Assembly (NCBI GenBank): GCA_020632515.1
Contig: JACKFK010000006.1
Coordinates: 75,876-139,875, forward strand
Length of the DNA: 64,000 nucleotides
From: Candidatus Omnitrophota bacterium
Lineage (GTDB): Bacteria > Omnitrophota > Gorgyraeia > Zapsychrales > Zapsychraceae
Direction of reading: 5' to 3'
Position numbers: made by a program. Each line of letters opens with the position of its first letter. Within the stretch, counting starts at the first letter, position 1. Shown here in pieces: positions 42,001 through 48,000 of this stretch.

Positions 42001-45000
42001 TTAATTTCTTTATTTAATCGTCAAGGGTTGGAATTTATTTATAAATACTGGATGAAAGTTGCGCATTTTATCGGCGATACAATTACAGCTATATTAATGA
42101 TGATCATGTTTTATTTAGTATTTACACCGATTGGAATATTCCTGCGGCTGACAGGAAAAGATCTCTTAGATAGGAAGATTGATAAGACTATTCAAAGTTA
42201 TTGGAAGCTTAGAGAAAAAACGCCTTTTGATAAAGAGCGTTGCACAAAACAATTTTAAAAGAGGTGAATATTATGTCGAAAGCATCTATTTTTAAAGAAT
42301 TTTGGGATTTCTTAAAAACGAGTAAGCGGTATTGGCTAGCGCCCATTATTATCATAATGGTACTTTTAAGTTTGCTTATTGTTTTTACTCAAAGTTCAGC
42401 AGTTGCCCCATTTATTTATACATTATTTTAGTTTTTAGAATAGCATTGCTTTTTTCAGAAGGTTTTATAACTTTTTAAAAAAAAGTAGGAACCTATTTAA
42501 GTTTTCGCTATACTACACCTGCAAATTATTAGGAATTTTAACTTACTGCATTAAAATACATTCATACAAAATCATGCAACTTACCAAAAAAGATATTGAG
42601 AATTTTGAAAAAGAGATCGCTGAGATTTTTTCTCAAGGAAAAATCCGTGCACCCGTGCATTTAAGAGCTGGGCGGGAAGATCAGCTTATTAAAATTTTTC
42701 AAGAATACAATATTGGAGATGATGATTATATTTATGGATATTGGGATTCTCATGAATTAGCCTTGCTGAAGGGGGTTCCTCGTGAAGAGTTAAAACAAGC
42801 TATTTTAGATGGAAAAAGTATTTCGTTGTGTTTTCCAAAATATAAAATATTGTGTTCCGGAATCGTGGGTAGTCTGATGGGAACCGCGGTTGGAACAGCT
42901 TGGGCATTGAAGACGCAGCGGAAACCCGGACGGGTTTTTATATTTTGTGGCGATATGTCGGCTGAAACGGGAGTTTTTCATGAATCGGTCAAATACGCTC
43001 ATAATTTTGATTTGCCGGTAACCTTTGTGGTTTGTGATAATGGCGTGAGTGTGATGACAGACACCCGGGAAACTTGGGGTAGTCAAGAGCCGTGGTTTGC
43101 AGATACAAAATACGCTGCTAAGATTATTTATTTTAAATATAAGAATGAATATCCGCATTCAGGATTAGGAAAATTAATTAAATTTTAAACTACTTATGAA
43201 ATACTTTGATGAACTAAAAAGAACAATGGAATGGTTATCTCAGCAAGACAACACCTTGTTTGTCGGTCAGACTGTTGCTGGCCCGGGAACATTTATGTTT
43301 CAAACGCTGCGTGATTTGCCGAAAGAGAAAACATTGGAGATGCCGATCAATGAAAGTTTTCAGATGCAGTTTACCATTGGGCTAGCATTAGCAGGGTATA
43401 CACCGATATCTGTTTATCCTCGTCAGAATTTTTTACTTTTGGCAACAGCCGATATGGTTAATATGTTGGATAAGATTCCAGCCATTAGTGATAATCAGGT
43501 ATTGCCACGCATTATTATTCGTGTGGCAGCAGGACCGTATGAGCCTGTTCATCCTGGCCATCAGCATGTGGGCAATTATGCGGAAGGTTTTCGTAAGATG
43601 TTCAGTTGGATTGATGTGGTGGAGCTGGAAGAACCGCAGGATATTTTTCCAGCCTATGAACATGCTTATACACGCAAAGATCAAAAAGCAACGCTCATCA
43701 TTGAGCATGGCAATTATTATAACGCGAAATAATTTAAATTTTTTTTCATCATGAAGGAGTTTAGCGCATGCGTATTTTAATCACCGGTGGGGCTGGATAT
43801 TTAGGCGCAGTCATTACCCCTGTTTTTCTGCGAGAAGGACATGAAGTAACGGTTTTAGATACTTTTATGTACAATCAAAGTTCTTTGTTAGATTGCTGTC
43901 ACTATCCGCAATTAAAGGTTATCCGTGGCGATACTCGAGATAAGAATCTTATAGCACAACTTATGAAAGAATGTGACGCCGTTTTTCCCTTAGCCTGTTT
44001 AACCGGAGCGCCGTTATGTGACCGGCAACCACAGGATGCTGAAGAAATTGTTGTGAATGCGTTAAAAATGATATTAGGTTTACGCAGTAAAGATCAAATA
44101 ATTATTTATCCAACCACGAATAGCGGTTATGGAGTTGGCGAAAAGGGGAAGTTTTGTACGGAAGAAACTCCTTTGCGTCCAATTTCATTATACGGTCGCA
44201 TTAAAGTGCAGGCAGAACAAATGGTTCTTGATGCGGGTAACGCTGTCACGTTGCGTTTGGCCACAGCCTTCGGTGTTTCTCCACGGATGCGTCTCGATCT
44301 TTTAGTTAACGATTTTACTTTTCGAGCTGTATTTGAACATCGATTAGAGCTATTTGAAGCGCATTTTAAGCGTAATTTTATTCACGTACGTGATGTAGCG
44401 AAAGCCTTTTTGCATATGGTGAATAATTTTGACAAAGTAAAGGATCAAACTTATAATGTAGGCCTGAGCGACGCTAATTTAAGTAAATTAGAATTGTGTC
44501 AGGAAATAAAGAAGTTTATTCCTGATTTGGAGATTATTGAATCCAATCAAGGGGAAGATCCTGATAAGCGCGATTATATTGTCAGTAATGAAAAAATTGA
44601 AAGTACCGGATATAAACCAGATGTTTCACTTTCCGATGGTATTCAAGAACTTATTAAATGTTTCCGTGTGATTGATTATCGAAAGTCGATCGAATCACGT
44701 TTAACAAATGTTTAGACAGTCATAATGAACTCATTAGACATCCTTTTTGTCCATCCCAATGCTTCCCAGAAAATATATCAAGATTTAAGTAAAGATTTCT
44801 CCACCATCGAACCACCGATATGGGCAGGTATGCTTATGGCGCATTGTTTAATGAAAGGGTTTCGTGCCGAAATTCTTGATTGCGAAGCGCTGCATTTGAA
44901 TGATGATACCGCCCTGGTTCAGATTAAAAAATCAAATCCTCGCGTGACATGTTTTGTCGTTTATGGGCAGCAGCCATCTGCGAGTTCGCAAAATATGGAA

Positions 45001-48000
45001 GGCGCGGTTTCTTTAGCTGAGAAAGTTAAAGATGTTTGTGGTGATACAACGATTGTTTTTGTTGGTGGACATGTCAGCGCGTTGTCTAAAGAAGTCATGG
45101 AAAATCATCCGTTTATCGATATGGTTTGCCAGAATGAAGGTGTCTATACGATATCTAATTTATTACAATCAAACTTAAAAGATAAATTATCGCAGATTAA
45201 GGGATTAGGATACCGCGACGGAACGAGTATTGTTTTAAATCCTCCGTCACCGATCGTGGCTAAGGAAGATCTTCCTCGAGAGCTTCCTGGCATTCCCTGG
45301 GATCACCTGCCGATGGATCGATATCGGACAGCGCTTTGGCATGCGTTGCCGAATAATTCTCAGCGGCAGCCGTATACAGCTTTATACACGAGCTTAGGTT
45401 GTCCGATGAGATGTTCTTTTTGTATGATTAACATTATTAATCGGCAGGAGAATGAATATTCTGACGGTAGCGCAGTTTTTCGTTATTGGGAACCGGATTT
45501 TATTATTAAAGAATTTGATAAATTTGCTGAATTGGGCATAAAGAATATTAAGATTGCCGATGAATTATTTGTATTGAACGCGAATCATTTTATGAAATTA
45601 TGCGATCTAATTATTGAACGTGGATATCAATTTAATATTTGGTGTTACTCGCGGATTGATACGGTTAAGGAGAAATATTTAGAAACTTTGAAAAAGGCGG
45701 GAGTTAACTATTTGGCGTTAGGCATCGAAAGTGGAAATACGAAAGTTCGTAAAGATGTCACTAAAGGGCGATTTGAGGAGGTGGACATTCGTGATATTGT
45801 AAGAAAAATCCGAGAACATGGGATTAATGTTGCGGCCAATTATATATTTGGTTTACCAGAAGATGACTATGAAAGCATGCAGCAAACATTAGATTTGGCG
45901 TTGGAAATGAATACAGAAATGGCAAATTTCTATTCAGCTATGGCGTACCCAGGCAGTCCATTATATGGACAAGCAAAGAAAGAAGGTTGGAAACTGCCAT
46001 CGACGTATGCGGGATATTCGCAGCATTCTTATTACACGCAGCCGTTACCGACGAAATATTTAACCGCGGAACAAGTCTTAGCCTTTCGTGATGAAGCTTG
46101 GATGAAATATCATACGAATCCGAATTTTTTAAATTTATTAAAAGAAAAATTCGGTCAGACCGCTGTAGATGAAACTCTGAAATCAACGAAAATAAAATTA
46201 AGACGTAAGATTTTAGAGGAACAAACTGTCACATGATTATCAGTCGAACACCATTTCGTATTTCATTTTTTGGAGGGGGTACGGATTATCCGAAATGGTT
46301 TGAAAATAATAAAGGAGCAGTTTTAGCAACTACCATTAATAAGTATTGTTATATTACCTGCCGTTATTTGCCTCCTTTTTTTAAACATCGTTCGCGCATC
46401 ATCTATTCCAAAATGGAACATGTTCAAGGGATTAATGATATAGACCATCCTTCTGTGAGAGAAGTTTTACGATTTTTAAAAATTCGCCAAGGGGTTGAAA
46501 TCCATCATGATGGAGATCTTCCCGCCCGGACAGGGTTAGGATCAAGTTCTTCTTTTACGGTAGGTCTTCTTAATGGTTTGTACGCGTTAATCGGCGAGAT
46601 GCCAGACAAAGAACGTCTGGCCAAGGAAGCGATTTTTATAGAGCAAGAGCGGTGTAAAGAAAATGTTGGATGTCAGGATCAAATGCTGGCCGCTTATGGT
46701 GGATTTAATTTTATAGAATTCGGAGGGAAAGATCATCTGCAAGTCCGCCGGATTACTTTGCCCGCGCCTCGCATTAAAAGTCTCCAAAATCATCTTATGT
46801 TATATTTTACCGGTTTTTCCAGAACAGCCTCTGAAATCGCGGCGCATCAGATTAAAAATATTCCTGATAAAGAAAAGGAATTAACGGCGATGTATGAAAT
46901 GGCTTCACATGCGTTAGATCTTTTAAAAAAAGATGAACTCACTAAATTTGGAAAATTATTACATGAGAGCTGGCAGTTTAAGCGGCAATTATCGGATAAG
47001 GTTTCAACACCGGAGATTGATCAAATTTACACGACGGCAATGGAAAATGGCGCATATGGTGGCAAATTATTAGGAGCAGGCGGCGGTGGATTTATTTTAA
47101 TTTTTGCCCCGCCAAAAGCGCAGAAAAAAATAAAAGAAAAATTTAAGAAACTCCTTTTAGTCCCGTTTAATTTTGAAAACTTGGGAAGTCAGATTATCTT
47201 TTATCATCCTAACGGCGGGAAAGAAGAATAATCGTATTTATTAATTAAGATGAGAGATCTTTCTGGGATTGATGCTGTTGTGCTTTGTGGTGGCCGCGGG
47301 ACGCGTCTGGAAAATGTTGAAAAGAATTTGCCTAAAGCTCTTGTCCAAATTAATGGAACCCCATTTTTAGAAATCCTTCTTAAATTTTTTAAACGACAGT
47401 CTCTACGACGGGTTATTCTTTGTGTCGGATATAAAGCGGAAAGCATTGAAGCGTTTATTGAGAGAGATAACTTTGGGCTGGATATTCTTTTATCCAGAGA
47501 GGAAAAGGCTTTGGGAACGGCGGGAGCGTTAACCCATGCTAAAAGTTTAATCAAAAGTGATCCGTTTTTTGTTTTTAATGGAGATTCTTTATGTGCCGCG
47601 GAATTAGCAGTTCATTTGGATTTTCATTGTCTGAAAAAAGCATTGGCGTCTATCGAGGTTTCAGAAGTAACGGACCATCAAGATTTTGGGACCATTGAAA
47701 TTAACGCCCAACAAAAAATCACATGTTTTAAAGAAAAAGGCCAAAGTTCGACGTCAAATGCGCTGGTAAACGCCGGGATTTATTGTTTTGATCAGAAGAT
47801 ATTTTCTTATATACCAAATCAATTTCCGGTTTCTTTAGAATACGATGTTTTTCCAAAGATTATTCAGAAGCAATTTTATGGATTTGCGATAAAAACACCT
47901 TTTTTTGATATCGGTACTCCGCAGCGATATCAAGATGCGCAAGAAAAGCTGAAAGGCTTTCTTAATGAATAAAAAGCAGAAACAGGCTGTTTTATTTCTT

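Follow-up and report, generated by a model that had tools for sequence, protein, structure and literature searches.

What does a split, minimal thiamine diphosphate (ThDP) enzyme do among genes for nucleotide-sugar chemistry? The question is raised by a 64,000-nucleotide stretch of DNA (the window) from a Candidatus Omnitrophota bacterium (GenBank assembly GCA_020632515.1, contig JACKFK010000006.1, positions 75,876 to 139,875 of the forward strand), in which four consecutive open reading frames (ORFs) on the + strand encode an E1α-like ThDP subunit (42574-43188), an E1β-like ThDP subunit (43196-43732), an extended short-chain dehydrogenase/reductase (SDR; 43768-44715) and a B12-binding radical S-adenosylmethionine (radical SAM) enzyme (44725-46236). 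An interpretation made beforehand from the nucleotides (the sequence-only reading) had delimited these four genes and named their domains and motifs as we find them, and had suggested that the ThDP pair attaches a branch to a 4-keto sugar nucleotide in the context of heptose. From the homologies and the gene context, we propose that these genes tailor GDP-heptose into a 3-deoxy-heptose branched at C4 and destined for a cell-surface glycan, probably lipopolysaccharide (LPS), and we put the probability of this at about one half. The central idea of the sequence-only reading thus appears to stand, favoured by a Cj1427-like SDR and a co-conserved ColD-type dehydratase, but the bounds of the cassette and the roles of the SDR and of the radical SAM enzyme had to be corrected.

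Judged by profile and fold comparisons, the first two proteins are bare cofactor-binding cores of pyruvate dehydrogenase (PDH)-type E1 subunits. The E1α-like protein (204 aa) comprises the diphosphate-binding (PP) core only. It matched Pfam E1_dh over model positions 6-177 of 300 (48 bits), with a partial match to TPP_enzyme_C, and its ThDP motif GDMS...CDNG (GDMSAETGVFHESVKYAHNFDLPVTFVVCDNG) is intact from residue 126, in agreement with the GDG-X(25-30)-N ThDP/Mg2+ pattern of the PP domain of heterotetrameric E1 enzymes. The profile of its family matched human PDH E1α best (residues 47-210 of 365, 50 bits), while 1-deoxy-D-xylulose 5-phosphate (DXP) synthase and transketolase reached 22-25 bits. 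An AlphaFold2 model of the protein had a pLDDT of 87, and the top 50 Foldseek matches of this model were all E1α chains (TM-score 0.80 normalised per query and 0.47 per target). The E1β-like protein (178 aa) comprises the pyrimidine-binding (Pyr) core only and matched Transket_pyr over positions 12-168 of 174 with 20 bits, below the gathering cutoff of 27 bits. The doubt left by this weak score is removed by the family profiles, which match PDH E1; that of the E1β-like family found human PDH E1β best (residues 7-176 of 329, 48.5 bits). The cofactor-activating glutamate E53 (in PINES) and the histidine H124 (in QH) of the E1β-like chain are invariant in the family.

Compared with full-length E1 enzymes, the pair lacks the C-terminal third of E1α and the whole C-terminal domain of E1β (178 versus 329 aa). 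The missing E1α region carries active-site loops, the histidine for reductive acylation and the functions of lipoyl-lysine acylation, and the missing E1β domain is transketolase_C-like and docks E2. Loss of the regions that contact the lipoyl group and E2 fits a free-standing carboligase. Pfam annotation of essentially all window ORFs of at least 150 aa, and of the annotated context loci, revealed no lipoyl/2-oxoacid_dh (E2) or Pyr_redox (E3) protein, and the sequence-only reading was right for the window in this respect. The E1α-like and E1β-like halves also occur fused in proteins of about 400 aa (P0156, P0212 and P0263) and in cyanophage proteins, and because of these natural fusions we take the two proteins to be parts of a single catalytic unit.

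The shortness of both ORFs, about half the canonical length, together with the sub-threshold score of the E1β-like ORF, could be taken to mean that they are what is left, without function, of a decayed E1 operon for pyruvate or acetoin dehydrogenase. Against this, the same lengths are kept in hundreds of sequences with about 75-83% identity across phyla, the catalytic motifs are invariant, the AlphaFold2 model is confident, and fused and intein-bearing members exist. This pattern of conservation refutes decay as the explanation, and we give it almost no credence. Some mini-E1α members in the set P0174, P0149 and P0214 have an intein or LAGLIDADG insertion, and in P0214 the mini-E1α is joined to an APH-type phosphotransferase domain. 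In one Omnitrophota contig (L015, 10633-12125), the E1α-like and E1β-like genes are separated by the insertion of a small gene for a nucleotidyltransferase and a transposase of the IS110 family.

Small split ThDP decarboxylases do exist: the sulfopyruvate decarboxylase ComD/ComE and the split phosphonopyruvate decarboxylases consist of two small single-domain chains (Pyr and PP) of the POX/PDC superfamily with the order Pyr then PP, and the fosfomycin pathway combines a ThDP enzyme, a reductase, a nucleotidyltransferase (a cytidylyltransferase) and a B12-dependent radical SAM methylase. By the same logic, the mini pair could be a split phosphonopyruvate or sulfopyruvate decarboxylase serving a phosphonate- or sulfonate-decorated glycan, and SAR11 bacteria, among the carriers of the cassette, have been reported to make phosphonates. 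The mini pair resembles ComD/ComE in its minimal split; it differs in its PP-then-Pyr order, in belonging to the E1_dh and Transket_pyr families rather than TPP_enzyme_N/TPP_enzyme_C, with PDH E1 as the best structural relatives, and in having no linked phosphoenolpyruvate (PEP) mutase, and the remaining cassette genes point to GDP-heptose chemistry. A PEP mutase was what the sequence-only reading had looked to as the mark of a phosphonate pathway. The motif EDKxxxxxNS, which we take to be that of PEP mutases, was absent from the window and 99 related loci (1.18 Mb in total), with one false match inside an E1α-like gene, and the Pfam annotation of window ORFs of at least 150 aa showed no PEP mutase either. 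Without the motif and with the wrong ThDP superfamily, the phosphonate pathway is effectively refuted, and its probability is very slight.

The clues to the substrate come from the SDR and from a gene further downstream. The SDR, an Epimerase-family protein of 315 aa, matched the PDB structures 6vo6/6vo8 with 58% identity over 303 residues (residues 2-304 against 4-306; E = 1e-118, 399 bits). We take 6vo6, deposited under the title 'putative sugar-nucleotide epimerase/dehydratase', to be the GDP-heptose C4-dehydrogenase Cj1427 of Campylobacter jejuni, reportedly the structure of Huddleston et al. 2020. On this similarity, the SDR is probably the C4 oxidase of the cassette and not a generic partner. 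The downstream gene (49161-50306, + strand) encodes a DegT-family protein of 381 aa with the motif SLYAAHIVTTIEGG at residue 186, in which a histidine stands where the catalytic lysine of DegT proteins is expected; the corresponding motifs are SLYAAH in the window, SFYYAHH in SAR11 and FYSHH in ColD. This Lys-to-His change is, at the sequence level, the signature of the pyridoxamine 5'-phosphate (PMP)-dependent 3-dehydratases ColD and E1/RfbH, which marks the protein as a candidate 3-dehydratase of NDP-4-keto sugars. It matched RfbH with 244 bits, and the best PDB match of its SAR11 orthologue was ColD (2gms, 163 bits). The [2Fe-2S] centre of the E1 type is not in evidence: because the 381 aa contain only four scattered cysteines and no E3-like gene is present, the dehydratase is considered ColD-like and not E1-like. 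The histidine is present in every cassette-linked DegT protein of all loci, and the lysine is kept in unlinked paralogues.

In C. jejuni, Cj1427 acts as the GDP-heptose C4-dehydrogenase, with 2-oxoglutarate as the hydride acceptor that recycles its tightly bound NADH, and together with a pyridoxal 5'-phosphate (PLP)-dependent C3-dehydratase it converts GDP-heptose to GDP-D-glycero-3-deoxy-4-keto-heptose in vitro, a species of [M-H]- 616.08 being reported for these enzymes (PMC10680097). The capsular GDP-heptose system of that organism shares with the cassette a Cj1427-like SDR, a ColD-type C3-dehydratase (HS:5) and genes like those of HddA/GmhB/HddC-type activation, and its Cj1428-type reductases and Cj1430-type epimerases are matched by the GDP-fucose-synthase-like and RmlC-like genes that relatives of the cassette carry. 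The pathway there has neither a ThDP enzyme nor a B12-binding radical SAM enzyme, whereas here the pairing of C4-dehydrogenase and C3-dehydratase is native, conserved and coupled to these two extra enzymes.

The cassette genes travel together. Co-conservation was assessed in 29 related loci from Omnitrophota, Planctomycetales, Vicinamibacterales and SAR11, each extending 7 kb or more to either side of the E1α-like gene. The E1β-like gene and the Cj1427-like SDR gene accompanied it in 29/29 loci, the His-type DegT gene in 26/29, a GHMP kinase gene in 25/29, the radical SAM gene in 24/29 and a nucleotidyltransferase gene in 23/29, so that the co-conservation with sugar-activation genes on which the sequence-only reading had made itself depend was found. 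Two of the three loci that lack the dehydratase gene are cut off by the end of the sequence retrieved, and L072, the remaining one, is nearly identical to loci in which it is present. The arrangement is far beyond chance, and given its co-occurrence across the 29 loci the C4 oxidase, the C3 dehydratase and the ThDP enzyme form its invariant core. Locus L063 represents a minimal natural form and lacks both the radical SAM gene and the GDP-fucose-synthase-like reductase gene. Marine loci, such as L077, have the SDR, radical SAM, E1α-like and E1β-like genes contiguous, with no kinase or nucleotidyltransferase gene within 10 kb and with GDP-mannose 4,6-dehydratase (GMD) and ColD-like genes adjoining; the theme common to all these loci, L077 included, is a GDP-linked 3-deoxy-4-keto sugar.

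The E1α-like protein has more than 1000 relatives, the closest 120 of which are 76-83% identical. When 1.84 billion cluster representatives (clusters at 50% identity) were searched exhaustively, a discrete family of about 200 aa emerged: 67 clusters reached E ≤ 1e-30 and 323 reached E ≤ 1e-10, nearly all with lengths of 195-225 aa. The arrangement recurs in 13 genome loci, and at least 553 metagenome stretches encode E1α-like relatives, the best 80 of which were used as loci. The genome matches fall in four phyla (Omnitrophota, Planctomycetales, Vicinamibacterales of the Acidobacteriota, and SAR11 single-cell genomes). No cultured bacterial carrier was found among the matches of the genome scan, which were metagenome-assembled and single-cell genomes only, or among 20 diverse cluster representatives, all metagenomic, and a plasmid search returned only ordinary full-length E1α at about 30% identity. 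The sole named carriers are the cyanophages S-SM2 and P-TIM68.

Taken together, the cassette suggests the following route. The Cj1427-type SDR would oxidise C4 of GDP-heptose, as its identity to the solved structure indicates, and the ColD-like enzyme, to judge from its histidine and its similarity to ColD, would remove the 3-hydroxyl group to give GDP-3-deoxy-4-keto-heptose. The compound that these two enzymes would make is of the same type as the acceptor of YerE. The mini E1α/E1β pair would then decarboxylate pyruvate and add the C2 acyl-anion equivalent to the C4 ketone, leaving a 4-C-acetyl tertiary alcohol; we infer this step from the analogy with YerE and KbDH-α/β and from the co-occurrence of the genes. 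The radical SAM enzyme, where present, may alter the branched sugar further by C-methylation or radical C-C ring closure, and the branch ketone may be processed by the GDP-fucose-synthase-like reductase of the relatives, which is absent here, or by a lysine-type aminotransferase encoded at 55243-56355. GT9 or other glycosyltransferases would install the finished sugar. The heptose itself is presumably activated by the HddA/HddC/GmhB-type genes, in view of their family similarities and of a SAR11 protein in which the HddC orthologue is joined to a GmhB-like HAD phosphatase; this fusion, the GmhB-like HAD gene and the GT9 gene of the window all appear to point to heptose. The most likely product is a GDP-3-deoxy-4-C-acetyl-heptose that would be modified afterwards by the radical SAM enzyme.

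Sugar branching by E1-type pairs has a precedent. Enzymes of the E1α/β type (αKADH2) branch keto-sugars with pyruvate to give a tertiary α-hydroxy ketone, with C2 branches only; about 120 antibiotic clusters encode them, and KbDH-α/β couples pyruvate to keto-sugar analogues in vitro, which validates the branching route that the sequence-only reading had invoked for E1α/β-like pairs. The known examples (KbDH-α/β of kibdelomycin, AviB1/AviB2 of avilamycin, Pau11/Pau12 of paulomycin, and those of aldgamycin and kosinostatin) resemble the mini pair in being two-subunit E1-type enzymes in nucleotide-sugar clusters without E2 or E3, and the clusters studied here, with their SDR and dehydratase, would likewise be able to supply a keto-sugar acceptor. 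Compared by description, the known enzymes are larger (Pau11, 325 aa; Pau12, 345 aa) and belong to actinomycete antibiotic clusters, where they act on TDP-deoxyhexoses or aglycone-attached sugars, whereas the mini pair is found with GDP-heptose genes in the surface-glycan loci of uncultured Gram-negative bacteria, and also in cyanophages. In a 2025 review on ThDP enzymes that branch sugars, LPS branching appears under YerE-like enzymes only and the E1 type under secondary metabolites only.

YerE branches CDP-3,6-dideoxy-4-keto-glucose with pyruvate in yersiniose biosynthesis (PMC9306805). The order of the chemistry in yersiniose and erwiniose biosynthesis is the one proposed here, with an NDP-4-keto sugar, a His-type PMP-dependent 3-dehydratase, addition of an acyl anion to C4 and optional reduction of the branch (YerF), and the product is again an LPS sugar. 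However, YerE and ErwE are single-chain acetolactate-synthase-like enzymes of the DC superfamily with the order Pyr-(middle)-PP (TPP_enzyme_N/M/C), whereas the enzyme here has two chains, PP then Pyr; in addition, the nucleotide here is probably GDP, and the heptose would be oxidised by a Cj1427-type dehydrogenase instead of a 4,6-dehydratase. Erwiniose was also considered as a heptose-derived sugar methylated by a radical SAM enzyme, and this was rejected, since it consists of a hexose and a C4 keto-acid donor joined by ErwE (PMC9306805).

The fate of the 4-keto group bears on whether the mini pair branches the sugar at all. The pathway could be that of a GDP-heptose in which the pair has an auxiliary part and works by itself as a 2-oxoacid decarboxylase or acyloin synthase, supplying an aldehyde or acyl group for a decoration that is not carbon-linked, or handling the 2-oxoglutarate of the Cj1427- and ColD-type enzymes. 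Cj1427 requires 2-oxoglutarate and the ColD-type step releases it (PMC10680097), the pair is never without the Cj1427-like SDR in the 29 loci, and the GDP-fucose-synthase-like 4-reductase of most close relatives could complete an unbranched 3-deoxy-heptose. Yet the 2-oxoglutarate produced and used by the two steps is already in balance, C. jejuni carries out the same chemistry without a ThDP enzyme (PMC10680097), the nearest structural relatives of the pair are pyruvate-specific E1 enzymes, and neither the window nor L063 has a reductase that would remove the 4-keto group. An auxiliary part of this kind is therefore unlikely, although it retains some weight. Returning to sugar branching, a C4-reductase is missing from both the window and L063, so that something else must consume the 4-keto group; its simplest fate is to be used by the ThDP enzyme for a C-C bond. 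In L063 the E1α/β pair is the sole enzyme left unassigned.

The cyanophage homologues suggest a different position for the pair. Two cyanomyoviruses encode mini E1α-E1β fusions annotated as 'transketolase central region-containing protein' (Synechococcus phage S-SM2 SSM2_198, L100 11983-13191; Prochlorococcus phage P-TIM68 gp190, L101 12055-13200). Both lie in heptose clusters with GmhA, a carbohydrate kinase, an HldE-like adenylyltransferase and glycosyltransferases, and with a zinc-dependent alcohol dehydrogenase gene directly upstream of the fusion; Cj1427-like and His-type DegT genes are absent from these clusters. A homologue is also present in a 735-kb uncultured phage (LR756501, 322716-323204). 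The pair might accordingly act upstream, in the manner of DXP synthase or transketolase, joining a C2 unit to a sugar phosphate to give a (deoxy-)ketose or a higher-carbon sugar phosphate that the GHMP kinase, HAD and nucleotidyltransferase enzymes would then activate. The SAR11 gene order E1α-E1β-GHMP, the match of some family members to the Pfam DXP_synthase_N model and the failure to find a GmhA gene (below) would all suit such a role. It sits badly with the L077 type of locus, which lacks the kinase and nucleotidyltransferase, and with the resemblance of the SDR to the structure that we take to be Cj1427, which implies that the precursor is an ordinary GDP-heptose; in profile and fold comparisons E1 leads transketolase and DXP synthase by 25 bits, and a ketose product would still require an isomerase. 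On balance, an upstream role seems improbable.

Several observations weigh against the branched GDP-heptose that we favour. No SIS/GmhA gene was found among the window ORFs of at least 150 aa, the SAR11 flanks or the context loci; the gene may be located in another part of the genome. At 58% identity, the SDR is likely but not certain to have kept the substrate specificity. The GDP-fucose-synthase-like 4-reductase occurs in 18/19 close relatives and could reduce the 4-keto group without any branching. Because the cyanophage heptose clusters lack the Cj1427-like and His-type DegT genes, the link of the pair to a 3-deoxy-4-keto acceptor is not universal. Finally, the pair is without the E1 C-terminal regions, the known branching enzymes are full-length, and its carboligase activity is only predicted. 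Just 35 nt (43733-43767) separate the E1β-like and SDR genes in the window, the place at which the relatives carry the GDP-fucose-synthase-like gene. In view of this missing gene, the product of the window organism may differ from theirs, for example in a branch ketone left unreduced.

The radical SAM enzyme (503 aa) has the class B architecture, with an N-terminal B12-binding domain (PF02310, 38 bits) and a Radical_SAM domain (PF04055, 70 bits) containing the CxxxCxxC core as CPMRCSFC at residue 226. Its highest NCBIfam scores were for HpnJ (149 bits, cutoff 578) and BchE (116 bits), the methylase families scored at most 90 bits, and all were far under the cutoffs; its best PDB match was AprD4 (65 bits), with TokK at 29 bits. 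It fell in no characterised methyltransferase subfamily among those tested (Fom3, GenK, TokK, PhpK and others). Thus, it shares the B12 domain and the CxxxCxxC core with the ring-forming HpnJ and BchE, the diol dehydratase AprD4 and the C-methylases Fom3, GenK and TokK, and reaches the cutoff of no family. The sequence-only reading had pointed to sugar C-methylation, which it may carry out, but its closest families are ring-forming and not known as sugar C-methylases. Since 5 of the 29 loci have no radical SAM gene, we regard the enzyme as a probable accessory tailoring step, either C-methylation or radical ring formation. Both have parallels: branch methylation is known in everninomicin (the 2025 review), and HpnJ and calditol synthase have been implicated in the radical making of cyclopentane carbocycles from sugars. 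A rule that each locus carries either a GDP-fucose-synthase-like SDR or a radical SAM enzyme held for the first 13 loci and was broken by L063, which has neither. In the Omnitrophota locus L005 (13455-14366), the radical SAM similarity spans about 315 of 503 residues at 35% identity, and the gene may be truncated or replaced.

Ring formation raises the speculative idea, to which we assign a small chance, that the cassette makes a carbocyclic sugar of the caryose type. Caryose is 4,8-cyclo-3,9-dideoxy-nonose, and its biosynthetic origin was 'currently unknown' in 2022. Formally, it equals a 3-deoxy-heptose (C1-C7) bearing a pyruvate-derived C2 unit (C8 and C9) on C4, with a further bond between C7 and C8, so that every cassette enzyme would have a role. 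The SDR would oxidise C4, the ColD-like enzyme would remove O3 and the mini-E1 pair would add the acetyl branch, after which the HpnJ/BchE-like radical SAM enzyme would abstract hydrogen from C7 and close the cyclopentane ring on the branch carbonyl. Such a ring closure would explain why the window needs no reductase. If this holds, SAR11 and Omnitrophota would possess a biosynthetic route to carbocyclic LPS sugars, the first for this class.

Whatever the final tailoring, the proposal is that a GDP-heptose pathway has recruited a split E1-type carboligase of minimal size, one that is widespread among SAR11, Omnitrophota and cyanophages. Literature searches found no published description of this gene combination. 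Two settings are known for the C-branching of sugars by ThDP enzymes, YerE-like enzymes of LPS sugars and full-length E1α/β enzymes of actinomycete antibiotics; if the proposal is correct, the bare PP and Pyr cores would be a third, minimal form and the smallest E1-type carboligase described, and would bring branching chemistry to GDP-heptoses. The pathway would then be widespread in very abundant, little-studied organisms: Omnitrophota, Planctomycetales, Acidobacteriota and SAR11, in whose surface-glycan islands it lies; the heptose clusters of cyanophages encode fused homologues. It would also predict that surfaces recognised by phages and grazers bear a new nucleotide sugar, and offer a compact biocatalyst for tertiary alcohols.

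The sugar-activation genes follow the radical SAM gene directly, on the + strand, as are the GT87, GT9, lysine-type aminotransferase and GmhB-like genes described below. For the HddA-, HddC-, GmhB- and GT9-like genes, all NCBIfam scores are under the curated (equivalog) cutoffs. A HddA-like GHMP sugar(-phosphate) kinase is encoded at 46233-47231 (NCBIfam HddA, 164 bits with a cutoff of 600, by far the top match), and a HddC-like sugar-1-phosphate transferase, probably a guanylyltransferase, at 47250-47972 (Man1P-GTase, 158 bits; HddC, 145 bits). The tight packing that the sequence-only reading had described is evident: the radical SAM and HddA-like genes overlap by 4 nt, 18 nt separate the HddA-like and HddC-like genes, and the later junctions are overlaps of 8, 4 and 1 nt. 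A GT87-family membrane glycosyltransferase gene (47965-49164; Pfam GT87, 92 bits) splits the nucleotidyltransferase gene from the dehydratase gene in this window only, the two being adjacent in related loci.

Further downstream lie a GT9 heptosyltransferase-like gene (54080-55207; Pfam Glyco_transf_9; heptosyltransferase II, 126 bits with a cutoff of 134.6), whose product is a candidate transferase for the modified heptose, the DegT-family sugar aminotransferase with its catalytic lysine (55243-56355; Pfam DegT, 423 bits; lysine kept in CFSFYPTKSLGGFGDGG) and a GmhB-like HAD phosphatase of the heptose 1,7-bisphosphate 7-phosphatase type (57213-57896; NCBIfam PRK08942, 137 bits with a cutoff of 178; Pfam PNK3P and Hydrolase_like). 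A GT9 gene directly follows the His-type DegT gene in L018, L019, L027, L032 and L063, and the order GT9-DegT-GT2-HAD is common to the window, L018, L019 and L063. The cassette limits first drawn, 42574-46236, are too narrow at the 3' side, where the cassette extends to the dehydratase gene and to the GmhB-like and GT9 genes. GT4, GT2 and ManC genes (50306-53381) part the dehydratase from the GT9-DegT-GT2-GmhB block in the window, and in L018, L019 and L063 the block directly follows the dehydratase. The 698 nt between the ManC and GT9 genes (53382-54079) have no entries of 80 aa or more in the ORF list.

At the 5' side, the claim that a new transcription unit starts at 42574 found support in neither direction: a gap of 141 nt precedes the E1α-like gene, but promoter and terminator matches upstream of it were no commoner than in shuffled sequence. 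In L018, the upstream gene lies within 4 nt of the E1α-like gene. A carbamoyltransferase gene, a gene for an SxtJ-like membrane protein and a DUF5989-type ORF of 52 aa (42274-42432) occupy 39842-42432, between the UXS-like and E1α-like genes; the same trio is present in L018, and L054 also has the carbamoyltransferase gene upstream. The trio may be an O-carbamoylation module of the same glycan. In most Omnitrophota relatives, the UXS gene lies immediately 5' of the E1α-like gene.

Upstream of the cassette, at 36033-39845, are two tandem genes of the UDP-glucose/ManNAc-dehydrogenase family and a gene for a UDP-glucuronate-decarboxylase-like SDR. Nearly all loci of Omnitrophota and Planctomycetales show synteny between these genes and the cassette, and the SAR11 loci lack them; probably they are a distinct module that provides a UDP-uronate or pentose for the same glycan. 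Across the whole window, the GC skew is strongly positive in each 2-kb bin and nearly all long ORFs lie on the + strand, which is consistent with a long leading-strand segment.

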